A stretch of DNA of 60,036 nucleotides, the filler included, from Hausera hauseri (taxonomy: Eukaryota), in NCBI GenBank assembly GCA_046269625.1. It is 12 parts of 12 records of this genome, joined end to end, with 100 filler letters (N's around TTAATTAATTAA, not from the genome) between each part and the next. Parts side by side here need not be neighbours in the genome. Positions count along the whole stretch, not along the records: positions 23,673 to 30,027 come from JBJURY010108209.1; 11 more parts are not named here. One strand, 5' to 3'. Positions within the stretch are counted from its first letter, which is position 1. The number at the start of each line of letters is the position of its first letter. The translations under genes were made by a program, and so were the position numbers. Shown in pieces: positions 3,733 to 55,281 of the stretch. The notes under the pieces are model-generated. The model worked only from the letters and a program-made list of their open reading frames with translations, was not told where the DNA came from and did no database searches.

Positions 3733-4060
3733 GACAATATTAAAATATCTATGATCTCCGATTTCTTTTATCCAAACGTTGGTGGTGTTGAAGGCCGTAT
3801 TTCTGAATTATCTCAATGTTTGCTTCAACATAGTTATAAAGTTATTGTCATTACTCATGTATATGCTGAAAAGGACAATTATTGTCGACAAGATGTTTGA
3901 AATTTGTCAAATTGCTTAAAAGTATATTACATATTATTACATCCCACCTTTTCTATTATTCGTGACATTTCGATACGAGAGAAAATTGATATCGTTCACT
4001 GGCCATGGAATCGATTGGTGGTGCACCGTCGTTAATGATTACAAATTCTTAAGATTTATA
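3733..4060 (+). pseudogene. PIGA: PIG-A (GPI GlcNAc transferase) N-terminal fragment
   Basis: Translates as NIKISMISDFFYPNVGGVEGRISELSQCLLQHSYKVIVITHVY...V*NLSNCLKVYY...IIRDISIREKIDIVH, matching the PIG-A signature [24 protein letters not shown]. Contains a stop and internal deletions. Confidence 0.85.
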
Positions 4061-22559: not shown

Positions 22560-23572
22560 TTACGATTTTACGCTGCTTTTTACAATTTTTGGCAACTATA
22601 TAAAATGACGCAACTAATAATAATAAGACAAACGTTGATACTCCAATGGTCGATATAACAGGTAGAGTTAAAAATTCAAATGTTTTTTGTGTTGCTACAT
22701 ATGTAGTAATTGTGTTCTGTACGTCTTTATCTTTTTGTGAATCTGGGTAAATTTTTTCTATTAAAATGTATAAGGTGATTGTTCAATTTCGTTTTCCTGC
22801 TGCATTAATTTGTATTATATATTCTGTCTGAGATTTTAAGGATTTACATTCAATTTGTTGCGTATTTCTTATGAGCACTACTTTTTTGTTTCTTATGTAG
22901 GGTTCGACAGTTTATTTTTATATCGTAGTTTAATCTTTCCTCAACAAAGAATACTATTCTATCCCGATGGATCGAATACCTGATAGGTATGTCTTCAATT
23001 CTTGCTTTACATATATTGTTCGTTGTAACAATTCGAGCGGTCGACCTTTTCGTCGAGGTTTCCATTGGAATTTTCCAAATTCTGTTTTCTGGATAGTAGA
23101 TTTGTAACTGTATACTTAGTTGATTAGGCCGTGTCTCGTATAAATCAAATCTTATTTTGAATTCTTGGTTCACGGGTATTTTACAGCACGGATGTTGCAC
23201 ACCTGCAAGGATGGAACAATATTCTATTTTCGGAGTTAGTCCTAGTGCTATTGCAAACACGATAGTAATTTCCCGACTGACCGTTAGCTCTGTCCGAGTA
23301 TTTACTTGAATACAGTGTCTTTTCTTATTCACAAAGATTGTCTGGTTATTTTCGTCTACTAGTCTTATGTCCGGGTCAGTGGATCGCAATATTTCGTTCC
23401 GTTTTACTTTATGATGCCTATTCCAAACAGGAATAACTAGTTGGAAATGTGGTTTTGTTTCATAAATTTTAGGTAATTTCGGTACGTACAGACGATAGGT
23501 CAGATTATAGGTATGTCCGAAATCTATGTCGCAACATTGCGTACGTTCTCAGGACTCAAAGTCACAATTCTT
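22560..23572 (-). pseudogene. Cys-containing type-I membrane protein (second envelope-like ORF), C-terminal part
   Basis: KNCDFES*ERTQCCDIDFGHTY...HCIQVNT...EYCSI....HPCCKI ectodomain. Hydrophobic LPVISTIGVSTFVLLLLVASF at about 22600-22670 is followed by a basic stretch. Homologous to 46628-47330. Confidence 0.65.
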
Positions 23573-23672: not shown

Positions 23673-26220
23673 CAATGTAATGACAGTTGCCAATTTATTT
23701 TTATAATCACGATAATCTACGATTTTTGTTGAAATGTATACCATATTTCAGGACGGAGGGAGTAATACATTTTGGCAATTCGTGTCTCCTGTTACGCAGT
23801 ATTTATGATCATGTCTTTGTAAATGCTTTCATAGTTAGTGACCTTTTGGTGTTATTTTGCTTCCGATAAATTCTATGATTTGTTGTATGACTTTGTCCTT
23901 CTTTTGTTCGGCAAAAATTCTAAATGTTTTATCCATTGCCAGGACTTGTTGTCTATCCACTAATTCTTTGAGTTGAGCTTTTCGCATCATCCTAATCGCG
24001 CTTGTTTTGGTTTTGAGCCTTGATAACGCGTCAGCATCGACATGTTTGATTCCGGGTTTGTACTGAAATTCAAGATTATATCATGAGATCTCTTCGATCC
24101 ATCTGTTGAGTCTACATGTCGGATTGTTTGCTCTGCCTTTCAAGATTGTAACCGCTTTATGATTCGTAACAATTATAATCTTTTGTCCGTAGACGTATGC
24201 GTTAAAGTGTCGTAAAGCTTCTTTTACAGCTAACGTTTCTAATTCTGTAACAGAGTAATTCTTTTCAGTTTTCTTAAGTAATAGTCCTCCGTATGCGATC
24301 GGATTATCCAGTTCTTCGTCTTTTCGTTTTTGCACTAACTCGTACCCAATGCCTTCTTTGCTTGCATCCGTTTTAATTATGAACGGTATGTTAAAATCAG
24401 AATATCTTAAAACTGGTTCGCTAGTTAGGATTTTCTACATTTCGTCAAAAGCTTTCTGTTCAACGTCGGTACATTTCCATTTAATCCCTTTTTAAGTAAA
24501 CGATACAAAGGCGCGTTCATTTTTGAATTGTCTGGTACATAAGTGGCGTAATACCCACATAAACCTAACCAAGGTGTTAATTACATTTGATTCTGGGGTT
24601 CCATACAGTCTCATATTTTACTTAGCAGTGATTTATCTGGTTTTGATCCTCCTTCTCCGACTATATGTCCAAGATAAGATACAGCGTTTTGAACCCATTT
24701 GCATTTCTTTGGATTTAATTTCAATCCGGCTTGTTCTATCCGCATAAGTGTGTCCTCGATATGATTTAAATGTTATTCTTCCTTTTTCGATGTTATCACG
24801 GCGTCGTCTAGATAAGCAAATGCGTGTTTTAGTCCCATTAACATCTTATTCATCATTCGGGTAAAAATAGCTGGTCCCGTTGAATTCGTATACAGCGTCG
24901 TGCGTTTTAAACGCAGTTTTATAGCGGTCTTCTTCTTCTATCTCTACTTGCCAGTATTCACATTGTAAATCGAGTGTGGTGAACCATTTTGCTCCGGAAA
25001 GCCTATCTAGGGCTTCTTTTACCGATGATAGTGGAAATATATCTTTCATCATAAGTGTGTTTAACGCTCGATAATCGATACAAAATCGGTGCTTTGTAGT
25101 AACTTTCTCCTTAACCATGAGTATAGTGGAGTACCACGATCGGTAGCTCGGTCTAATTATGTCGGCCTTCAACATTCGTTCTACTTCTTTTGTTATCTCC
25201 GGTCTCAATGAGTGTGGAGGAGGATACCATTTCGGCATCTTCTGATCTGCTAAACCTATTTCATCATTGGTGCCAGGCTTTTCTTGAACGGAATTGTTAG
25301 CCTCAAGGCCTTGGCTCTGCCATTGTCTTCTTCGTCTTTATCGATAACTTAGTTATAACGGCAAAGTAATTCGTAAAATCGGCAGTATGACTCGGGCGAA
25401 AATTTAGTTTCAACATGAGGTGGAAATTCGGCACATTTGTAAGGTTTTTCTTTAATCATTATTTCCGATACTCTATAAGTATGCCCAAAGTTGTGTTAGC
25501 ATATAATCTAATCGGAATTGGTGCGTTATTAGCTATTCTATTGGGCATACGACCCGTCGATACTCTTGTTAATACGTTACTGAGCACAATGCTTGGATTT
25601 GACGATTCTCTTGGTTCGAAATACACTGGTTGGTCGTTATCCTGACGTATCTGAGAATATATTAATACTTTGGTTCTGGGTGAAATGTTCTCGTCTACTG
25701 GGATCCAAACTTCTCCGAATTGCCTAATCTTGGTAGTTTTAACCCCTTTTATCGGTCCAAGTTTTATTAATTTCCCTGCATGGACGTCTATGGCTACATT
25801 CGGTAGTTGTCGCAACAAATCGCATCCTAATACTACATCATCCGTCAATTGTTCCATTACTGAAAATTCGTGATGTAAAGATTGTACCATTATTCGTATT
25901 TCCGATCTCCATCGGAATTTGCTTTTCGACGATTGTCCAAAAGCTTCGACGTTTCCTAAGTCTGTTGCTGGAGGTCAGTATAATTGCTTTCGTAAAAGCT
26001 GCCGCATTGAATCATAGTTTATCAGGATATCTCAGATCCTGTGTCTATCAATGCGTAGACCTCCCAATCTTCTAGCTGGATTTTTGCAAAAGGCCTACCT
26101 TCGATTATCGTACCATAGTAATTTGGTGCTAATTTTTGGATGTCGTATGCTTGACACCTTGTAGCCGTTAATGGTAACTTCAGTGGTTCCAACCGGCTGA
26201 TCGATTAGTTGCCTTAACAC
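23673..26220 (-). pseudogene. pol: Ty3/gypsy protease-RT-RNase H (to the start of integrase)
   Basis: ALIDTGSEIS (DTG at 26037-26045), RFCIDYRALN, TLDLQ.EYWQV, FAYLDD, KTDAS, EKNYSVTELETLAV, DADALSR. Confidence 0.93.
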
Positions 26221-26686
26221 TCCAATTGGGTTTAACTCATTATTCGTACCATTTACATTTCCCGTTTCTTGACTTCGAACTGGCGACTGTGTTTCTTCGT
26301 TTCGGCCGTTCTGCGCTTCATGATCTCTTGAGAAATTGATCGCATTTCTTTTGGTCTGGGTACTCTAGGCAAATAAATTATACCGTATTCGTCGACTGCT
26401 GAACGACGATATGGGGCAGGCGTCCTTTTTATTTCGTGAACCTTACGTAATATACCATAGTGCTTTGCTCCTTCATAAGGATCCTGAAGGTTAAACAGTT
26501 TTCGACAAACATCTGTTAGATATAAACTCGTAGACTTTTTCTCACAGTCTTGGTATATGGATGCAGTTGTCAGTAATATTGGTAATGGCGGTTTTATAAC
26601 AGAGTAGCTTTTGTGTCTATTGGTCTTTGAGACGGCGTCTCGTCAATGTTATTCCTCTGTGTTTTGACATTTGTGAATTTATGTTT

Positions 26687-28737
26687 TTAATTAAAGATGT
26701 GTCTCTTTTTTCGTTTTCGATTATGGTAGCCAACATGTCGTTCTACATCCGCATTCCATCTACTTTCTTCATAAGCTTTTAGAAATTTTCCGAAAGGTGT
26801 GATAAAAACCGTTAAAATTTTGCATGAAAATCCCGTCAGGCTGAATATCTCATATCCGTTTATAATCACTTGAATTGTTGCTTTAACCACCTGAATTAAA
26901 AAGTAGATTGCTAGGAATCCTGATGCGGCTTGTCCGAATATCGGAAACCTTCCCCAAATTTTATACAATATTTCAGTAGTCACCTTTTGGTAGTAGTTAA
27001 CACCAAGTAACGATTCCCATTTCGCTTGATAACGCGAGTCTTCTAGTATTGTATGCACCGCTCTGTTTAATTCATGCGTCCGTTGGCGTGGAAAAGCAAG
27101 AAATTGTCTAAATGCTTCTACATCTTTCGGTCGATAAATACCTTTTGCGGCGGTATCTTGAAACTTATAGTAGGTTATTCCCTTTATCAAGTTTGTTCGC
27201 GTCAGTTTGGCGGGTGGCGCGATTATGCCACCGTTCAGTAAACTTACCCAATCGGTTTCGCTCTGTCGGAACATTGGCTCGCCTAGGCTGCTCGTGCAAT
27301 CTCTCATAATTGTCGGTTGAGTAGAGTTTGCCAACAATACTCTAGTAATTGGTGTTACTAATCTAGTAGGCTGTTCGACTACATCTTTTTGCGTTTTCGA
27401 GTTAGTATCTATTCTGCTCATGTAACGTTTTCTTGTCATCTCATTAAACTTACGTTCTTTGATCTTAATGAAATTGCAGTCAGTATTACAGCACGTCTTG
27501 ATATATCACTGGAAGTTCCTGTATACACCTCTTCTCTTCCACATTAATGGGTACATCCCTTTTTCATAAATCAGTAGAACTTCTCCAGTCACTCGGCTGA
27601 AAACGCCTTCTTTCATCGGAATTATTGGCGGCGCCATTTCGGGATTGGCATAGATTAAGGCCAACGTGGTTGTCATGACTTCTAAGTCTAATTTGCAGTC
27701 ATTTGTTATCATCTTGTGATATAACTCGACTACTACAGCCTGTCCCTTATAGTAGAAGTAGTCTTCTCTGTTCTTCAAATAATCCTCGATTCGGATATCT
27801 TGAGTATCCAGCTTGAACGTTTTGGCATTAATTTCAGTCTCAGCCACAAAGAATGCTTCATAGTTTGTGGCATAAATTACTACATCACATCATGCAAGTT
27901 CGTCCTTCTTTACGAATTTTAATCCATGAGTATCGGAGATTAATATGGTAGGTGTAGGCTGTTGGACTACATCTTTTCGCGTTTTTGAGCTAGTATCTAT
28001 GCTGTTCATGTAACGTTTTCCTGTCGTCCCATTAAACTTAAGTTCTTTGATCCTGATGAAATTGCAGTCAGTCTTGGCTGGTGGTTCCCAAATTACGACT
28101 GAACTTCTAAAAGCACAGGAGCCGTCTTAAATGTGACACTTTTGGTTTTCCGTATAGAGCTTAGTAACGCTATGAAACATTACTTTTTGTGTGGGCATCT
28201 CAATTTCGTAGAAATCCACAACCACTATGTTTGATTCCAATCCTTTTCCAGTATCGTATTCTGCACAGTTGCAGTGACCTGCTATTTTGTATGCTCTGAT
28301 TATTTTCCCTTGCTGCATTCCTAATTTCATGCTCTCCCATTTCAGCCTGCCTGTCTCTCTGGCCTGTTTATAGGGCTGCCGTTCTAAGTTCGTTGGAATT
28401 AACGGGGTCGTTGGCTTGATTATAAATGAATGCCAATGAATTAATTCACAATGGAAAATACTGCTAGAACGTCGTAACATGCATTCTATCCAATCCAATG
28501 AGACCAATTCTCGTTGCTGGTACAGCATATATCTCTTTTCTTTTTTTTTAATTTATGTGGTCTCGCATCTTTGCACATTTCCAAATACATCAATAAATAC
28601 CGTTGACCAAGCCTGAATTTATCACAGTCATATATTTTAACTGCTCCCATTTGCCGTATTAACATCATCACGGTCAGAAAATTAATTAGCCTGTTTGGTT
28701 CGTTTCCTCGATTATTTCCATTTAAGTTTCGTAACAT
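26687..28737 (-). pseudogene. env: Chuvirus-like (class III, gB-like) envelope glycoprotein
   Basis: Signal-like NFLTVMMLIRQMGA then IYDC; IECMLRRS..FHC..H; AG.C..AEY; LYHKMITNDCKL..EV...LAL...NPE; RVTGEVL; PITRVL; GIYRPKDVEAFRQFLAFP; KIWGRF..FGQAASGFLAIYFLIQVVK...NGYEIF. Collinear with the chuvirus glycoprotein pattern I recognise. Confidence 0.88.
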
Positions 28738-28824
28738 GTCTTCAAATCTACTATTATTGTTACTAACGAAGGGCCTGTTTTGACATATCGCATCTTTTCC
28801 GAATAGTTTGGACCAATCTATTTC

Positions 28825-29841
28825 TCAGGGTAATTTCCTATCGGTCTTTCGTGCTAGACTATTGGCCTTGTTAAATTCATTTTCCCGGACTGGATTTGTT
28901 CTAATGGCCAAATATAATAATTCTTTCCGCAGCTCTTCTATGGTGTTCTCTACCATAATTTTCTCGATCACCAATTCATAGCTTAAGGTGCTTCTCGATA
29001 ATTTACAGCGGAAATTCTTCATTGTTCTGGCTGCATTCAATATAGATTTCTCCTTTTCGTCTAATATATCGCCACAGAGACTGGAGTGATTTGCTATGCG
29101 TATCAAATTTTTCATGAGTTCATTTAACTCTTCATTTTCCGTGTTAAAGGTCGATATGGACATTTGCCTTAATTCTCTAATTAAATCTCCATTATAGTCA
29201 ATTTCTTCTCGCATTTTCCGCGGTCTACCGACGGGACGCTTCTGTTTCGCTATTAATGACACGGTTTCACTAGGTGGTACTAAATTCTTATCAAACTGTT
29301 CTTTATCTTCATCTGTTTGTAAGTATTCGAAACACATTGTTGCGTCTCGAACGCCGATGACGCGTCCTACACACTGATCAGTTTTGGCCTTTTTTGTGGC
29401 TTGTTCCTTTGTTTCTTGCATAGCAAGCGTTACTACTATCCGATTTGTTTCACCTGAGATAATTCCGACGTCTATTAATAGTTCCAGTTCGTATGATATT
29501 CTACCTATAAAGTAAAATCTATAATTTTGTTCGCTTGCGCAACCATTACTTATTAGCCACTGTATCACGTCTCTTACGTAGGAGTGCGTAGTGAACTCGC
29601 GCTCTTTCTCGTCCATCCAGTCCGACGACATTCTTATTTTAATCGGCTCCTCGGTTTTAGCACTTAAGATTTCCGCATACTCCCTTATCAAAAGTTTTGG
29701 CACGGCACTATAAGTTGTACCTTCGCTAGATAGTTTAGTCAGGGTAGGAACTAACTTTCTTAACTGAATTTTTGTGAAGTTTACATTAATTAACTTAATT
29801 AAATCTTTCTCAGTTTGCACCGAGTCCCGAAGCATTTTCAC
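28825..29841 (-). CDS. Pre-env accessory domain with AT-hook-like GRPRK
   Basis: 338-aa ORF in frame with env across a single TGA. Shares GRPRK, EL...LI..AN and KSI...AR with 45384-46214. Confidence 0.65.
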   Translation of the reverse strand: MKMLRDSVQTEKDLIKLINVNFTKIQLRKLVPTLTKLSSEGTTYSAVPKLLIREYAEILSAKTEEPIKIRMSSDWMDEKEREFTTHSYVRDVIQWLISNGCASEQNYRFYFIGRISYELELLIDVGIISGETNRIVVTLAMQETKEQATKKAKTDQCVGRVIGVRDATMCFEYLQTDEDKEQFDKNLVPPSETVSLIAKQKRPVGRPRKMREEIDYNGDLIRELRQMSISTFNTENEELNELMKNLIRIANHSSLCGDILDEKEKSILNAARTMKNFRCKLSRSTLSYELVIEKIMVENTIEELRKELLYLAIRTNPVRENEFNKANSLARKTDRKLP

Positions 29842-32199
29842 ACCGAACCTCTGATCTGATAGACATGTATCTGTTTCTTACAATCGTACGAGAGTTTTCG
29901 GATTTTCAGCAACCATTGCGTTTAACATGCATCCCATTCTTGTTCACTTTCACTGTCCGGCGGTCGATAATCAATTGTCGAATTGTGCATCTACTGGTCT
30001 GGCCATATATTTAACCTGTATTGATCCNNNNNNNNNNNNNNNNNNNNNNNNNNNNNNNNNNNNNNNNNNNNTTAATTAATTAANNNNNNNNNNNNNNNNN
30101 NNNNNNNNNNNNNNNNNNNNNNNNNNNAGATGCAAACTGAGTCACTCAATTATATTATCAAAAACATCTTCAAACAATTTTTTAGACCTTTCCAGTGTTT
30201 CTACTAGACATATTGGCCTTGGGAGGGCTGCTTATGAAAACAGAATGATCAACAGCAGAAAAGTCACAAGTTTTTATTATTAGAGAGTCCAGCTTTGTTA
30301 AAAAACACAATTTACAGAACATTAAAAAGTCTGCAATTAGCATTAATTGAATCTTATAAAGTCTATCTCATATCTAAAGATACATTTAAGATATCTTGAA
30401 CTGGAGTCTCCATACAACTTAATGATAAATCAGATGTTATTTATACTATTCATGATGCCTCGAACACCTTGGTGTGGTCCATTCTGTCTGTCATAGTGAT
30501 TCTCCATATTAGATCTGAACTTCATTGTCGTTTCATTTGTTCCTCTACAAGTACTTTAACGATTTTCTTTAGATCTGTTCTTTGTCTTTCTATTGCATTC
30601 GTCTCTTGCATCTCTTCTGCATTCTGTGCGTGTACTTTCTGAGTCGTTTGTTAACTTTATACAGTCAATCACATTGAAGATTGTCTATTCTTTTGTTTGG
30701 GAAAAACATTCGCACCATAACTTTGTCGCCGAATGTCAATTTTTGTCTAATACAATTATTCTGTTTTGGGGGTCTTTTTTGAATTTTTCCAGCTGCTGTC
30801 TCAGTTTGGTGACATATTCACTCAGATTTCCCCCGCCCCATTTCTTTTCGAGATTTAACTATATCCTCATTCGTTTTGCAAATATCGTCTCGTTTGGCAT
30901 TGCAAACAACCTTTCTAAATAGTCGTTCAACATTTCTATCCTTTTGCTGGTATTTTCGGGAGGTCGTCTATTTCTGATTACTCAAAAATTATCTTGTTCT
31001 TGAATGAAATTCTTATATCGGAGTATATTATTCCTGGAATGCCGAATAACACAATCTACTTAGTAAATAACAATGTTGCAATATTTTCGTAGTTACGTTC
31101 TTTAGAGTGATTGACATCGGACGTTTTCAATAGTTGGCAAAGTAAAGAAGACTTTACTCGGCAAAGTCGGAGGATCGAAATCCTGAAGATCCCTTAGATT
31201 CTTGTCGCACATAAATCAAATTGAAGTCTAATCAGTTTTTAAAATGTATTTATTTTTATCCAATATTTAAGCAAATTAAAAATAAATAATAATTTACTTA
31301 TTATTTATTTTTGATGCTCCATTACTTTCCCCTCTCCTTTATGATCCTTGTTCACTCTTTTCAACCATTCCACTCTTCTACGAATTATTCTACCATCTTC
31401 CATGTTTTTCAACTCCCACTGATGCGGCGAAATTTGTTAAATTATTTGATACAGTCCTTCGAACTGATAAGCATTTTTTCTTTTTTTCTGAGGATCTACT
31501 TTCACGAAAACTTTTTGTCCAATTTCAAAATTTCGTTTCCTTCCCTTCGCCCCTTCGAAATGTTCCATTCGGTTAGCTGCTTCTGTAATATGTTTTTGTA
31601 ACACTGTCTGTCTTATGACTCCTCAATCCATAAAATTTTATCGTCTCTTCATTCTTCAAATTTTCATCCTCAGCACTTTCTGATTGTAGATGCAATATCC
31701 TGATGACATTATCTATGAACATTAATATTTTCATGGTTGTATGTTGGTCTGTACATTTATACATTGTTTCTGGCATTTTATGTCTACGTACTTGACTTTA
31801 TCCTTCAGGAGTTGAACAGTCTGATTGGTACTAACTATCAAGTCAGATGTTTTAAGATTTCCTTTCTATCTCTATATAGCAGAGTATCATCCGATTGTTA
31901 TTCATTTTGACGTACGGTGGGCCTATCACTTCATTTCTTAGTAATTCCCAATCATTTATTAATTCCCTTTAGAGATGATGCAGTTTTCTCTTGAAATACC
32001 TCATCGATTACTGATGGAACGGTTATCCCATTATATATGTGTATATAATTGTGTAAATTTGGTAGGATCCAATCATATATTTCAGTAACTTTTCGACGCG
32101 CATCAATAGTTAGCCGCAGTTCCCATTTTGTATTGCTTGGTTAATTAGGCAAAGCTAATACTGTCATTTGACGGATTTTTCGAACCTGATTATCTGTAT

Positions 32200-33299: not shown

Positions 33300-34868
33300 C
33301 CAATAATAATAACTTGTTCTTCAAATACTGGAAAGATGGCTTGTGATGATCTAACGCTTTAACAAACTACTTCATGATGCCAAACTTGATGTGGAGATTT
33401 GGTAAGATGATTTTCTTTTTCTCAACAAGAGGTTCATGAATGACGTTATGAGAACCTAGTTGAAACGTTTCTTGCGATGGCCAAGTTCTCCTTGTGTAAT
33501 ATTCTGATTTCATCCTGCTGCCACATGTGCAGTGGAAACAGAAGAACTTTGTATAACCACTTTCCAATCCGTTTAGAATAGCTACGACTTTCAAATCTGC
33601 ACATATGAGCCACTGATCATCTTTGTATTTTATTCTGGCCAAAATAAATACTCGATTCTCATAGGTTTCTCTCAGGGGTATCGAATGTGCAATCGGAATG
33701 GAAGGTAGCTCATTTCCAATATGAAGTAATAATGTCTTGATGCTGTAGAGTGATGCGTCAATGAACTCCATTGAGAAGAATCATATTGTAATCCTAGATT
33801 ATCAAACAATCCCTTAATATCATTGTAGAAGCAGAGATCTTTGAACAGGGAAAAGTGCTGCTGCAGTTCCCAGGATTGTTTTCTAAATGATGAAACTTTT
33901 TCATCATCGTCCAACAGATGCCACTGCTGAAGACGTGAAGCCAACAGTTCACTCTGATGCTTAGTCAAATCACGAAGATCATTCAGCTCAGGTCCTGTTA
34001 TGAAGCGAGGTTTACGATTAGTATCCTTCAGCAACTCGTAATTTTCCTTAAGAGTTTTCTTGTATGATGCAGAAGAACTGTCTATGCTTTAAATTTTTAA
34101 TTGAGGTTCAGGAACTTGGAGTTCAGCAGAATGAGCAACAGGATGAATAGCTGTAGATATATTGTGATAGATAACAGCCTTCTTCCCTTACAATTGCGAC
34201 CTGATGTCGGTTAAACAGAAGTATCAGTTTGTGCAGTGATTTTTCGACTCTCCACACCATTGGTATTCCAAATGTTAGTCCTCTACCAGATCTGTTTTCC
34301 CATGCCGACAGTGAACTAGCACACTTTAGACAGCATATATGAGGCGCTCAGTTTTTATCCTGGTCTCCGAGCTTGCAGCCAAAGTATGTATAGAGTCAAT
34401 CTTCGTCTGCACCTCTTTAACATTAGTTGACAACAAACGTAACAAAAGCTATCGGCCTGATTTAACAATTTCTGGGCATTAAACGCGCTTGTATTTCCAT
34501 CAGCTTATATATCCTTCTAGCTAATTCGATAATTAGCAACGAAATTACGTAACGCAATTACAACTTACGTGTATGATTATAACTATATAGTAATTACACG
34601 AAAGTTGTATTTACGTTACGTGATTTCGCATTACGTAATTTCGGTGCTATATTAGTAACGAAATGACGTCACTTAATTATCTCGGTCATTTACACAAAGC
34701 TATTAAGTACCAATATATTTTCTGGTAAACAAAACTTCTCTATAACAAAAAATGAATTTATGTAAAATTGGTGGGTCACACAAGAAAATGGGTATTAATT
34801 TTGTGATCTGCATGTCAAAATACATAATGTCGTGCCACTCGCATTTCCGTTTTTTTTTTGTTGAAGTG
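33300..34868 (-). mobile_element. Chapaev3-type (CMC) DNA transposon, 5' end and truncated transposase (about 33310-34479)
   Basis: FCYVC, YFGCKLGDQDK..APHICC..C, IPMVWRE..H...YFC, SELLASRLQQW, FIDAS..S.K.LLLH.GN..PSIP, ICADLKV, GYTKF.CF.C, LHIK.G.MK.FVKAL. Terminus CACTTCAACAAAAA at 34868 is flanked by TWA. Confidence 0.88.
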
Positions 34869-41267: not shown

Positions 41268-43250
41268 AGACAATACAGCAGAGACAAGTGTCATGAATAA
41301 TGATATAAGACTAGACAGAGTCGAAGAAAGAACTACACAAATAGAATAAAAGGTGAATGATAGTAATATAAGCTTAAATAAATTGGAAGAGAGAAGTTCT
41401 CAACTAGAACAAAACATAAATGCCCATTCCAGACAAATATATAATTTATGACAACAAACTATTGATCATATATTGGCAATACATAGAAATAGAGAACAGA
41501 TTGATAATAACGGGAGGCAAGTAAATCAAAGGTTAAATGGAATGCAAAATCAAGTAGCAATTATAGTATGTGAACAAGAACAAATACAGGTAGAAAATAG
41601 TCATACCAAAAACAAATAGAAACGTTAACTCGAGGTATAAATCAATTAAACGAACGTCTCGAACAAGTAAGGACAGAGGAAATGATAACTCAACGGCAAG
41701 AAGAAATACAATAACCAGAGTTTTCAGTAGAAGTAATTTCCATATCATGTGAAACCTCTGACACTAATAGCAACAACATGGAGCCGTCAAGGAATAACCG
41801 ACAGCCTTTGGCTCATCATCATGAACGCAATTATGATTTAAATAATAATGCCGGTTTCGACCTATTCAATGAAAGAAGAGAAGAGAAATACCAAATGTTA
41901 CCTCGCCGTCAACCATATGAAGGGCGAGTATCGGATTTGGAGGACTTTTTAGATGAATACTATTCACTAGCAAATGATATGCATTGGGATGACGCAAATA
42001 AAATATCTCTTTTACCAGTACATGTGAATAACGACCTGAGAATGGCAATAACCCGCCTACCTATGCGAATATATAAAACGTGGACGCAACATTGAGAAAG
42101 GATTCTACAAAATCAACAAGTTAATATACAAGAAAATCGATATATAAAATTCAAAAATTGTAAACAAAAACCAAATGAAGAAGTTTTGACATACATTAGT
42201 AGATTTAAAACAGCAATGAATAGATATTTTTGCCATAACAAACATGCATTTGGTGCCATGATCATGAAGCAATTTGTACTTTGACTCTTGCCACCCTTAC
42301 GAGGAGTTAAATTCCATACCGCCAATAATATCAATGAGTTGATAGAATATATCCGAAGAATGGCAACACGGATAGATGAAACACCCTTATGGGCTAATCA
42401 AACGCAAATTGCGACAGTAGCCACGACACCATTACTAGTAAGGCAAGATGTATCAAATCGTAGTAACGCACCTTGGAGAGACTCTTGGAGAAGCCAAAGT
42501 CCTAATCTGCTAGGCAACAATACACCACAGCGAAGCAATACTCCAGAAAGAGGAAGTTATAACCAATCATCTAAAAACTACAATAGTAACCAAAGAGATA
42601 CACAATATCAGCGAAATAGAAGAAACTACGATGATCAACAACGAAACGACCCAAGGTATGGTAGATCACGGGATAACTCAAGAGATAGCAGTAATAAGAG
42701 AAATCGATTGCCTAGTAGTGAACGGTACAACAATGGTCGAAATTCCAGTCGCTGTGAGAATAAAAACAGTCAAGTGAACTCATATTATAAACGAGATAAT
42801 AGCCGAACACGATGTCCAAATAATCGTTCGGAAGGATCAAGACTTAACTATTCCAACGATAGACGAAGCGAAAGTCGCGAGAGATTTAGAAGAAATGACA
42901 GTCGAGAAAGATATAGTAACTTCAATAGAAATAATAGCAGAGAAAGAGGTAATCGACGAGACAGTAACAGAGACAGGTTTAATCCTGGAAATGATAATAG
43001 AAATAGGTATAACGATTCAATATCGGGTCAATATGATAGAAAACGCGATTATACACCACCTCAACAAGATTTGGATAGGTACAATAAAAATCCCAGTCCA
43101 TATTCCCAAGGGACCAAAATCGAACCCCTTCTCAGAGACAAAATAACAAAAACGATAAATACACCCGACCGTCGGATTATAATTGTAGACGAAATGACTC
43201 ACCGATAAACAGAAACATTTCCCCACACAGATATGACAGAAATACGACAT
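41268..43250 (+). pseudogene. gag: Gag of the complex gypsy-like element: coiled coil, capsid-like domain, R/S/N/D-rich tail
   Basis: Heptad-like LDRVEERTTQIE...LNKLEERSSQLEQ; YEGRVSDLEDFLDEY..LA..MHWDD..KISLL; CKQKPNEEV.TYI.RF (MHR-like); long SRE/SRD-rich stretch; no CCHC knuckle seen. Confidence 0.78.
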
Positions 43251-45383: not shown

Positions 45384-46340
45384 ATGATGTATGGAATGCT
45401 TTACGACAATGAGACACTACCATTAACTAGTCGAATAGAATGTGCGCCGTTACTCTTTCCATTAACAAAAGATGACGTATTCTGCTTTTTAGCCGCACGA
45501 AAGTTACTAAAAACTCTAGGAAGAGACCAAAGACGAAAATACCGAAGAAAACAACCTTATATTATAAGTGTAGAAATTAAAACCAATAAGCAAAAACAAG
45601 TAATTGAAGTAACAAAAGGAATGTTCACTAAATTTACAGATCTCCGAAGGAAGGTATTAGATGAATTAGATTTAGAAACTAATATAATAGCGAAAACTGA
45701 TGTCTATGGCAGATTAGCCGTCGACAATGATTATGTTGTAGATTATGGACTCCTTACCGAAAAGATTTATCAGATTACCATGGAATTTGACACCAAGAAA
45801 AAGGGAGGAAGACCTCGAAAATGTGATTTTAACCCAATAAGTGATGATGAAGAAAAGCCCGAAGAAGAAAAGCCAGAAAGGCAAAGAAAGAAAAGACCTT
45901 TGTCGCGGAAACGTAAGGAACAACGGGATACATTAGAACATATATTATATGATAATTTCCAACGATTCACTATTAGTGACGATGAAAATGAACCAACACA
46001 AAATCCAGTCCCGGGAACGTCAAACCAGAGTGAAATAAATGTACCAAAAGTAACACTGACGATTCAGGAACTTCTGCAACAGTTAATTAAGAAAGCTAAC
46101 CCAAAGCAACTTAACAAGATACCAACAATTACAAAAATTCCACTAAAGTCCATAATAGAAACGGCTAGAAACTTTTCATCACGATTACAAGATTACTACA
46201 AAAATGTAAACTGAAAGGTGGATTGAATAAAGCATTGACACGACTATTAAAGGCATGTGACCAAACCAAACAGAAGTTGACGCCAAGCTACATCATCTAG
46301 TAAAGGATCTAGCCCATCACATGGACAAACTAACGAAAGA
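45384..46340 (+). pseudogene. Pre-env accessory domain with AT-hook-like GRPRK
   Basis: KKGGRPRK, ELLQQLIKKAN, KSIIETARNF; homologous to 28825-29841. Confidence 0.6.
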
Positions 46341-46527
46341 ATGGGTAACCAAACAAGGCGTTTGGACGAAATCCTCAAGAAATGTAACCCTACAACACTA
46401 ATATTATTATATTTGATAGCCGTTAGTAGCCTAAAAACTACGAAGGCATTAGAAGCTTATGATTGTTCCAGACCAGAAATAACAGCCAGACTTTCACTGG
46501 TGGATATAGGTAAATGTCAAAACGCAA
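46341..46527 (+). CDS. env: N-terminus of chuvirus-like glycoprotein
   Basis: LILLYLIAVSSL...ALEAYDCSRPEITARLSLVDIGKC matches signal + YDC-x8-SL.D..EC. Truncated by the contig end. Confidence 0.82.
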
Positions 46528-51625: not shown

Positions 51626-53632
51626 GTGGTCATGGAAAAAATGACGAGTCAATTACAGGTGGAAATCCAGAAAAGCGATGGTGTAAAGGCCAATGGAATA
51701 TTTTTTCAATTTATGCTACTTTTATTGGTGTTATTTTCGGATTTTAAGAAGACTGGAACAATATTGGCTTATGATTGCAACCAAATATACGAAGGTAGCT
51801 ATTACTCATTGATGGATTTACAATAATGCCCAGATGCCCTTCCGAGGAAATTAGAGACTCAAACGCAGACTTTATATATTTATTATGATAAAACTATGTT
51901 ACACATAAAGGCATTGGAATGTTCTGTACGTATATCGCGTACTATTTCTCATTGCGGTCACCTACACTACGACTCGTACATTAAGCCAATTACCATACCC
52001 AAATGCGTGTCAGTAAATCCTGCATATTATAGAGATGCGGGAGAAACTCAAAAGTTGAAATGGGAAGATATTTTGCTCACAGCTATAAAAGGGCAAGTAA
52101 CCCAACAAGATAAATGGATCGCTGGTTATAAAGATGAAAAGGGAAATTGTAGAGGAGGAAATTTTGATACCCGAAAAGGTATTGAAGAAAGTATAGTAGT
52201 ACATGACCAGTACGAGGTCGAGATTAAGGATAATACCTAAATTTTTGAGACTTGTACAAATAAAATGGAAAACTTATCCTTTTGCAAGTTGCAAACGGAA
52301 CATTGTCATACTAGAACATCCACAATAGTATGGACACCTCCCATAAGTTATGATTGTACAATAGCACAAATCAGAAAAGGAGAATTCAGTGTCACTACCC
52401 AAAAAAACGCTATGCCCGTCACTATGAGTCTAATTTTGAGCATACCAATATTCAAGTTATTCCGGAAGTAAAAACTCCAAAAATTGTGATATATAAGGAT
52501 ATCAAAGGAGGAGTCTAATTTATACAACAAGACGCAATCACAAAATGATGACAACAAGTATATAATACTAATTACGATAATTATTTTATATTAGAAAGAG
52601 AGATAAAAGGTGCGGATAATGCTCCCACTAACAAAGCTTAGTTAGTAAATATTGCCAATTATATAGCAAATCGGGATGATTTTTGTTTTATCTAACTCAC
52701 AAAGCAATTGAAGAAATATATTCTGAGACCATTCAGAACTTTTGCAGAGTGAATCTTGAAACTTTGAGAAACCGTTTGGCTATCTATGCATCTAACCCAG
52801 AAATGATCACAATAACCCTTCCCTTTGGCGAAGGAATTCAGGGAAGAGTCCTAAGAGAAGTGCTATATACATACAAGTGCAAACGATTAGACCTACCCCT
52901 GATTACTGGTACTCCTTGCTACTCTGAGATACCTGTTAAGTATAATGAAGAAATCCGATACGTTCAGCCGATTACCCGAGTACTTCTATCACCACATAAA
53001 ATACCCACGGAAATTCAAAATTGTTCAGTACTAAATAAACCATTTATCAAGTACGACAATCAGGACCTTTGAATTAGATTACTGGATCGTGAAAGAGTTA
53101 AGAAAAGACCGAAGAATTTGACGATGGCGAATTTGAAACATGCAATTAAAAGCAATATGTTTACGGACGTGTCCAAATCCGCATTATACAGCAAAAAGAA
53201 ATGGGTTTATTCGTGAAGTTTTTAGCATACCCTCGACAGAGAGAGCAAATAGTAAATCGCGGAATACACCGAGAAATCGATGACAAAGCCGTAGAAGGAA
53301 AATGGGACCGCTTATGGACACCTGAGGCCTATACTAAAATCGATTCAAATCTGTGGTATAAAATGTGAGGCAGATTCCTGAGATTTGGTCAAGTAGCCTC
53401 TAGGTTAATGGTCATATACTTCATTATACAGACTTTCAAAATCTGTATCAATTCCGTATTAAATGCATATAAGATTTAGAACTTAAAGGGACAACCTCCA
53501 AGCATAATAGGTGCTCTATTTTCCCCAATTGGTAAATTCATTAAAGTTTACCATAAGAAACAATGGCGAGGTAAACTAGAAAAACATGTTGATTATAAAT
53601 CGAAGAAGCTTTTTCCAAAGGACACCCCGTAA
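51626..53632 (+). pseudogene. env: Chuvirus-like (class III, gB-like) envelope glycoprotein
   Basis: FMLLLLVLF...LAYDC...YSLMDL..C; LECSVRISRTISHCGHLHY; AG..DEKGNCRGG; IYSETIQNFCRVN.ETLRN.LAI...NPE; EVLYTYKC; CYSEIPV; PITRVL; FLAYPRQRE; GRFLRFGQVAS..MVIYFII. Confidence 0.88.
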
Positions 53633-53902: not shown

Positions 53903-55281
53903 ATGGAAAGCAACCGTGTAACATTACCTACATCACATAAGATATGTACACTGCCACCTACACCTTATCATCAAACAAACCGATTAATGAAAGATCAAGT
54001 AGATAGAGAACCCAATTTAACGACCTCAGCATCCGTTAGTAGGCAAAACGCAACATTCCAACGTGTAAGTTGCTACATAGACCTGACTGAACTCAAAGAG
54101 GAAGTGAATGGAGTGGAAAACAATACCCAGTCTTTGCAAAGTTTAACCGTTTTATTATCAAGCGGCACTACCCGATATTGTTCAACTAGTTACAGCTTGA
54201 TGGAACCACATATAGATAATCACAACGATGTATTAACGTTTCTCGAGCTGTTACGCGATAATCGACCTCACATCGGAGTTCACTTTTATAGCTTTGACCT
54301 GAATGTTATGGTTGACACTGGCGCTAACGTTGCATTAATAGCAAAACATGTCATTCCAGAAGAATTGCAATTTCAAATAAAATTGGCTACTAAAGACTCA
54401 CCTGGTACTACTTCGGCTTTCCAGCAATGCAGTAAACCTTATGCATACTGGAAAAGTGAACTTTGGATTTGTGGACAGAAAGTCATGATAACTTTTGATG
54501 TAATGGTTACCATAGATCCGCGATGCATTTTGGGTATGAATGTGTTGCGAAAATTGGAAGGATTACACATAAACTTACAATCAGGATCAATTTGTCGAAA
54601 TATTGATAATAAACCCCCTAATTACAACAAAACAGACATCTGAGTAGAACATGTTGAGAAAATGCTACCCAATTCTAGAATGGTTATACATGCCAGAACA
54701 ATATTCCCAGACAACAGTGTAATTGACTTTGTGCCGAAAACTCTTCGAAATGAGCTTATATTACCACATTACTGCGTTAAAGTAATTGGAGGTACCATTC
54801 CCGTAGAAGTTCTAAATCTCTCTCCAAGATTTGTCACGATATTCACTAAAACAAAAATTGGACAGACATTGGAAACTACAGGCCAAGAAAAATACGATAA
54901 CAAAGTTGCGGCCATCTCCACAGCCGAACATGCTAATGTTGAAGACACACTTAATGTCATTCTTACTAAAGTCAAGCAGATTTTATCAGATAAATATCTA
55001 AGGAATTTCTCAAACCTCATTTGTCAGTACCTTGATACTTTGCAAAAAAAGAAACGGATATCAGACGAACAGATTTTGTCGAATTTAGATTGTCGTTTAT
55101 GCTCGACCTCACAACCGGAAAGGAGATAGATCTATTACGACAACCTATACCAAAATGGTACCCTCCTCCAAAAGCACGCCAAAGGGAAGTTGAGGAACAA
55201 ATTCAGGCAATGCTCGATAAGGGTATCATAGAATTAAGTCAATCACCATGGCTTCTCCCATAGTTATGGCCAGGAAAGCTA
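53903..55281 (+). pseudogene. pol: Aspartic protease, PR-RT spacer and start of RT
   Basis: VMVDTGANVALI (DTG at 54314), ILGMNVL, then PKWYPPP...EVEEQIQAMLDKGII..SQSPW. Confidence 0.88.

Follow-up and report, generated by a model that had tools for sequence, protein, structure and literature searches.

Decayed Ty3/gypsy fragments with a class III envelope upstream of protease and reverse transcriptase in a Hausera hauseri assembly: likely members of the flatworm Burro-like GAG-ENV-POL group

Retroelements bounded by long terminal repeats (LTRs) and carrying an envelope gene between gag and pol already have a literature. The planarian element Burro, as described in the consulted part of PMC6431247 (Arkhipova and Yushenova 2019), encodes gag, a ubiquitin/SUMO-like module, Bcl-2, env, protease, a dUTPase-like domain and reverse transcriptase (RT)-RNase H-integrase in one frame; its env matches mononegavirus glycoproteins and was named as the first env to lie in frame between gag and pol. 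The excerpts of PMC13524379 (Chary and Hayashi, eLife) report, from nematodes, bryozoans and flatworms, GAG-ENV-POL errantiviruses whose ENV is of gB type; counting terms in the table gives 36 elements for nematodes, 10 for bryozoans and 9 for flatworms. A passage of PMC13465017 (citing Lee et al. 2026) reports Burro from land and freshwater planarians with a cargo of RING plus BIR, and BURRO1 is transcribed according to the part of PMC8532177 seen here. The present window is a stretch of 60,036 nucleotides from a Hausera hauseri assembly (GCA_046269625.1), made up of 12 unrelated contigs (C1-C12) of 4-6 kb each with spacers between them. We consider it about 85% probable that several Ty3/gypsy LTR families with a class III envelope upstream of protease and RT left the broken fragments in C6, C9, C10, C11 and C5, and that these belong to the likely flatworm Burro-like GAG-ENV-POL group. 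A sequence-only reading of the window did not recognize the gag-env-pol order as described; the idea of an undescribed order is rejected, the order being in print for Burro (PMC6431247) and for errantiviruses (PMC13524379). With publications on it going back to 2019 and an animal-wide survey available, the gene order is of little added value in itself. The present copies are a new set of dead members of a group whose kind is already described, contributing additional families and perhaps another host.

The core of the evidence is the gene order in three contigs. An element fragment on the minus strand fills nearly the whole of C6 (23673-30027), where open reading frame (ORF) and sequence comparison gives an accessory region (28825-29877), the envelope (26687-28689), an envelope tail or linker (26094-26686) in which no LTR, further repeat or extra protease was detected, an aspartic protease (25786-26093; LIDTG at 26051-26037; independent E-values, iE, of 1.4e-5 and 9e-4, spread over two frames), a conserved domain (25480-25785), a frameshifted RT (24495-25229; RVT_1 E 9e-9; YLDD at 24814-24803) and RNase H (24015-24434; RT_RNaseH E 1e-27). 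C6 has neither gag nor integrase; the contig stops at 23673, before an integrase would come. A divergent copy on the plus strand of C11 (51698-55281) runs from an envelope beginning at 51698 and 31-38% identical to the C6 envelope pieces, through a linker in the same frame, to a protease (54293-54574; RVP E 7.5e-7) and the start of RT at 55156. From the C11 anchor to past the protease there is a single frame, with 5 stops in 632 codons versus 45 and 52 in the other sense frames. C9 (41916-46527, plus strand) supplies the upstream end: gag (41916-42308; iE 2e-14 with a profile of four relatives), about 1,000 accessory codons, ubiquitin-like, AT-hook-like and Bcl-2-like modules, a signal (46392-46424) and the start of an envelope at 46455. 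It is 45-72% identical to the intact single-ORF protein P0024 from the gag tail through the envelope. All three orders had been proposed by the sequence-only reading and were found as proposed, with the C6 parts decayed: stops, frameshifts or both occur in every element contig, and every part of C6 is broken. A separate accessory gene in C6 fared less well. The 350-codon ORF is there, but most likely it is a central part of a single long polyprotein rather than a gene of its own, its frame continuing over one stop into the envelope signal (1 stop in 463 codons versus 48 and 46 in the other sense frames).

The C6 envelope is of class III (chuvirus G or gB type) on the combined strength of a sequence profile and a predicted fold. 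Its 621-codon frame matches PF24664, the Monjiviricetes fusion glycoprotein, at E 3.7e-39 (134.7 bits, cut-off 27), and the separate pieces do so at 1.7e-8 and 8.9e-23; the frame has 3 stops, versus 62 and 41 in the two alternative sense frames. An internal signal-like segment (28689-28657), an N-terminal YDC motif (28635-28624) and an anchor (26917-26861) can be recognized in spite of three stops and a frameshift near 28550. The modeled monomer has a mean pLDDT (predicted local distance difference test score) of 82 and a long central helix, and all 42 PDB matches listed in a fold search are herpesvirus gB (best E 4.5e-10), while the predicted viral structures that match best belong to chu-like glycoproteins (E 5.8e-26, TM 0.49). 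A profile of 86 envelope relatives likewise recovers gB in 36 of 40 PDB rows (best E 8e-4). Two other envelope queries returned nothing: no PDB match was found with the single envelope sequence, and a 272-aa piece of the envelope, used in a word-indexed search for homologues, matched none of the 773 candidates. The class III character put forward earlier thus holds. Within the C6 envelope lies an internal duplication of 122 nt (27366-27487), an 89% copy of 27954-28075, which coincides with the low-confidence stretch of the model (residues 333-392).

The enzymes of C6 are of Ty3/gypsy type by sequence. The best PDB sequence match is yeast Ty3 both for RT (E 4.6e-19, retroviral RTs scoring 4e-5 or weaker) and for RNase H (E 5.4e-13), which bears out the Ty3/gypsy pol that had been claimed. 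C10 (47400-51088, minus strand), 71% identical to the C6 pol over 2,361 bases, carries the Ty3/gypsy-type order protease, RT, RNase H and integrase; with its integrase as query, the word-indexed search gave seven matches, all distant. The conserved domain between protease and RT is present in C6, C10 and C11 and occupies the slot termed dUTPase-like in Burro; a three-sequence profile found no dUTPase match and nothing informative.

Relatives elsewhere show the same series unbroken. Searching the full library with the C6 envelope yielded 285 matches at E up to 0.001, and 13 of the 150 listed exceed 1,000 aa. All 13 were scanned for domains. In nine, envelope and then protease lie in one chain, five of these also containing RT/RNase H; three others end in or just past the envelope, and in one no further domain was called. 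Integrase precedes the envelope in none of the 13. The cluster members P0162 (4,844 aa) and P0165 (3,003 aa) hold the whole series in one chain. Nearly all of these relatives derive from ENA assemblies. A gB-type ENV between GAG and a Ty3/gypsy POL is seen piecewise in C9, C6 and C11 and whole in P0017, P0023 and P0031, and the envelope is in frame between gag and protease by way of the envelope-protease frame of C11, the accessory-envelope frame of C6 and, for C9, P0024. The relatives' DNA loci were found in none of the viral contigs, metagenome contigs or prokaryote genome contigs searched. One full envelope-pol polyprotein, P0014 (HBK71150.1), is deposited as a protein of a Flavobacteriaceae metagenome-assembled genome, and is probably from an animal contig binned with a bacterium. 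Several relatives also repeat the protease: P0017, P0162 and P0015 have 4, 6 and 3 aspartic-protease Pfam stretches per chain, some of them past the integrase, and repeats occur in P0012 as well, versus one protease each in C6 and C11.

Modest evidence from sequence comparison points to ubiquitin-like and Bcl-2-like modules of Burro type in C9 (ubiquitin-like 45519-45770, AT-hook-like 45807-45821, Bcl-2-like 46047-46377). The relatives share a helical and ubiquitin-like module ahead of the envelope, whose best PDB matches are the ubiquitin-like domain of ubiquilin-2 (E 0.003), and a GRPRK motif before the envelope is common to them. A profile of four relatives' Bcl-2-like segments finds the Bcl-2 family in 58 of the 60 PDB matches shown (best E 7e-4), and each of the four segments matches Pfam Bcl-2 when E-values up to 5 are admitted, P0013 reaching 20.1 bits against a cut-off of 31.4. 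In C6 the 350-aa ORF (29877-28825) has no significant Pfam family; the accessory region matches P0165 (iE 5e-4 in a 22-sequence set) and includes a weak ubiquitin-like module at about 29817-29398 (iE 0.15-0.19), an AT-hook-like GRPRK at 29229-29215 (AT_hook E 0.2) and a helical region. Ankyrin occurs in the relative P0162, and the window yielded no counterpart of an exonuclease-like motif present in P0026.

A number of points limit the reading or weigh against placing these fragments in a Burro-like group. No contig contains a whole element, and C5 and C10 are joined to C6 by homology only. The linker between envelope and protease in C6 has 7, 16 and 7 stops per roughly 217 codons in its three frames, none of them open throughout, so that in-frame fusion is demonstrated for C11 and the relatives and not for C6. 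The TM-scores of the C6 envelope to gB are low, about 0.3. Trees built from rows without named references, among them those of RNase H and integrase, give little resolution and place C6 and C10 inside no relative's clade; kinship with Burro and the errantiviruses was judged from descriptions rather than by direct sequence comparison. The Bcl-2-like segments were chosen by eye, a profile search does not detect the domain in C6, and its presence in C9 depends on P0024, whose own segment matches Pfam at E 0.052 and without whose row no match in the window is obtained. Scanning the window ORFs, on contigs of 4-6 kb, revealed no MATH, BIR or ankyrin in those covered. Finally, the sole host-type gene tested is of land snail or slug type and not of flatworm type.

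That last point bears on the best surviving alternative, in which the architecture is the same and the elements sit in the land snail or slug of the window, or in some other unreported phylum, which would give GAG-ENV-POL elements a new host group. In its favor is a CAP-Gly (CLIP3-like) exon in C12 (56685-56822), 93% identical to proteins of Arion vulgaris and Bradybaena similaris, versus 74% to leech and 57-68% to fish. As to novelty of the host, the consulted part of PMC13524379 lists the GAG-ENV-POL order for Nematoda, Bryozoa and Platyhelminthes only, and the first 15 of 46 mollusc rows in its table are all F-type. The composition of the contigs points elsewhere: CpG observed/expected ratios are 0.90-1.17 in the five element contigs, 0.56 in C12 and 0.43 in C4, and dinucleotide distances are 35-74 among element contigs and 117-148 between these and C12. 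Since C12 and C4 are CpG-poor and the element contigs resemble one another, the window is probably a mixture of DNA from more than one organism. Composition is not decisive against a snail, because coding retroelements can differ from host introns; still, the copies are heavily decayed and show no CpG loss. Also against a snail, the succession of ubiquitin-like, Bcl-2 and env is the signature of planarian Burro in the available text of PMC6431247, and the PMC13465017 passage knows Burro from land as well as freshwater planarians. A new host group is thus improbable in our estimate. A triclad flatworm, favored by the Burro-type cargo, is the probable host of the elements, a mollusc being improbable and other animals sharing the remainder. 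A land planarian with snail prey would be one fit for the mixed DNA.

Far less probable is an accidental order, produced by a nested insertion or by an endogenized chuvirus glycoprotein that came to lie beside an ordinary gypsy pol. The closed C6 linker would suit such an origin, as would the length of the linkers (297 codons in C6, 310 in C11), which exceeds the distance to the first protease (125-208 aa) in 8 of 12 measurable relatives. These lengths do, however, approach the 322-365 aa at which a second protease follows in four relatives, and neither linker contains an LTR match or a repeat. Anchor and protease share one little-damaged frame in C11, and envelope and protease share a chain in most of the long relatives. 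Nesting is rejected on these grounds: intact relatives encode the whole series as one polyprotein, so the order is not an artefact of insertion, and the recurrence in three contigs does reflect, as had been suggested, a lineage of gypsy-like elements with gag-env-pol order.

The domains DUF5641, DUF1759 and Peptidase_A17 are markers of BEL/Pao elements. An identity as BEL/Pao, like mosquito Anakin, is the least probable alternative and is rejected: Pao elements do carry the same envelope family (10.1101/2020.02.15.950899, in the part consulted) and the weak match P0076 has a DUF5641 domain ahead of its envelope, but both RT and RNase H find their matches in Ty3 and in Pfam models of Ty3/gypsy type, and a scan of 34 ORFs with an E limit of 0.1 turned up no BEL/Pao-type domain.

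The Burro-like fragments also hint at a product encoded past the integrase. A minus-strand frame after the integrase in C10 (46628-47359) has a RYNLRP motif, a signal-like segment recognized by eye (47299-47258) and the start of a cysteine-bearing putative ectodomain; a hydropathy scan of a stretch that began inside the signal-like segment flagged no peak. Its homologue in C5 (22594-23572, minus strand; 33% identity over 115 aa, E 1e-19) ends in a predicted membrane anchor (22659-22594). All five relatives that extend far enough (P0014, P0015, P0026, P0162 and P0165) have two or more hydrophobic peaks after the integrase, the first of them signal-like, and four show by eye a motif resembling C..L.P.T.Y and a proline-rich tail. 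Against a second membrane protein stand the lack of significant similarity between the window protein and the five relatives, which are themselves only weakly similar to one another, and a two-sequence fold with a pLDDT of 35. The protein matches no Pfam family. An Atlas search with the P0014 post-integrase region returned fn3 clusters at 0.89-0.91, weak by the tool's own measure (recognition 1663), and one with the C5 ORF returned no match. Judged from sequence features, a second membrane protein after the integrase is likely in the element family and probably present in C10 and C5. We did not find such a protein in print, in a search that left Grohme 2018, Lee 2026, Sacco 2022 and most supplements outside; the words fibronectin, RING and polyprotein do not occur in the main text of PMC13524379 as available.

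Downstream of this frame, C5 continues on the minus strand with decayed accessory frames of about 800 codons (20237-22593), ending in a C3HC4 RING finger (ORF 20557-20237; zf-C3HC4 E 2.6e-6, above the cut-off), and then a purine tract (20167-20156), a 743-bp LTR (20155-19413) with ends TGTTAT...ATAACA and a tRNA-type primer site that begins TGG (19410-19393), these last three spanning 19393-20167. A weak gag-like start follows the primer site (18933-19259; iE 0.11). The LTR is tied to C6 only via C10, and no contig contains a second LTR or a target-site duplication. The run from element 3' end through one LTR and a primer site to a gag start could mean that copies lie in tandem, that the element formed a circle or that the assembler collapsed its LTRs. 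Past the second anchor, a stretch in frame at 21834-21620 looks SUMO-like by eye and has no such Pfam match.

Some conditional statements about the active ancestors can be drawn from this topology and the established behavior of signal-anchor polyproteins; the present copies cannot make proteins. The whole series was likely translated as one polyprotein. Gag and the host-like modules (ubiquitin-like, AT-hook and Bcl-2-like) would have stayed in the cytosol, the internal signal would have directed the envelope ectodomain into the endoplasmic reticulum (ER), and the anchor may have served as a stop-transfer sequence, so that protease, RT, RNase H and integrase would lie on the cytosolic side again. 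The envelope tail would then tether Pol to the membrane until the element's own protease released it, and a further signal past the integrase would lead into the second membrane protein. Such a chain could ensure that capsid, fusogen and enzymes arrive at a single membrane in a fixed proportion. By analogy with gB, the envelope trimer might fuse particle and cell membranes, while Bcl-2-like, ubiquitin-like and RING modules may dampen cell death or degrade host factors. A more ambitious proposal, which we regard as tentative and rather doubtful, is a two-protein entry apparatus in one polyprotein that would cross the ER membrane four times, pairing a gB-type fusogen ahead of the protease with a fast-evolving, fibronectin-type-III (fn3)-like attachment protein past the integrase and adding a RING cargo. 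The analogue is the herpesvirus arrangement of gB with a receptor-binding partner. If the post-integrase protein were such a partner, the elements would be equipped with an entry apparatus of two components, as viruses are, and movement from cell to cell could then be tested in intact planarian relatives.

Other elements share the window. C1 (2-3480) and C8 (35069-38589) hold copies, 84% identical, of a second gypsy family that lacks an envelope; adjoining the copy in C1, at about 3751-4000, is an intron-free decayed fragment that we take to be PIG-A-like. Two decayed copies in C2 (5362-8382) and C3 (9666-13871) are 80-90% identical over about 2.9 kb, and have what appear to us to be ATPase-, integrase- and dUTPase-like motifs, presumably of a Polinton/Maverick. 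The low CpG ratio of C4 (14157-18832) possibly marks a third organism; we assume from resemblance that its first 200 bases are the end of a fish-type RTE/Rex3 long interspersed element. On the minus strand of C7 (30128-34968) are heavily decayed retroelement-like pol fragments, and next to these a stretch at 33367-34088 that by eye is transposase-like, with no Pfam match.

Among known systems, the mosquito Pao elements termed Anakin, in the consulted part of 10.1101/2020.02.15.950899, are alike in joining a chuvirus-type glycoprotein to an LTR element, and differ in being BEL/Pao rather than Ty3/gypsy. Non-canonical nematode endogenous retroviruses, reportedly with a single gag-env-pro-pol frame, are the subject of Sacco et al. 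2022 (J Gen Virol); as cited in the PMC13524379 excerpts, they have the order of envelope and pol flipped in a metavirus, as here, and differ in their nematode hosts. Closer are the errantiviruses of the same source, which share the Ty3/gypsy pol, the gB-type envelope between gag and pol and an ectodomain between two hydrophobic segments; that set is intact and mostly multi-copy (an inclusion rule and not a trait of the lineage), whereas the present copies are dead fragments. Burro itself, from the available descriptions, is a giant of 25-30 kb with MATH, BIR, ankyrin and Smc domains, none of which were seen in the present fragments; its RING is accompanied by BIR, while the RING of C5 immediately precedes the 3' LTR and no BIR was detected there, and the PMC6431247 account, in the part available, mentions no membrane protein past the integrase, where one is probable in C10 and C5. 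As those descriptions of Burro and GYPSM1 go, the order of modules in one frame appears to be the same, from gag through env, protease and an extra domain to pol, with ubiquitin-like and Bcl-2-like modules before the envelope on the modest evidence given above; the cargo is of RING type, and decayed copies are reported in a related species.

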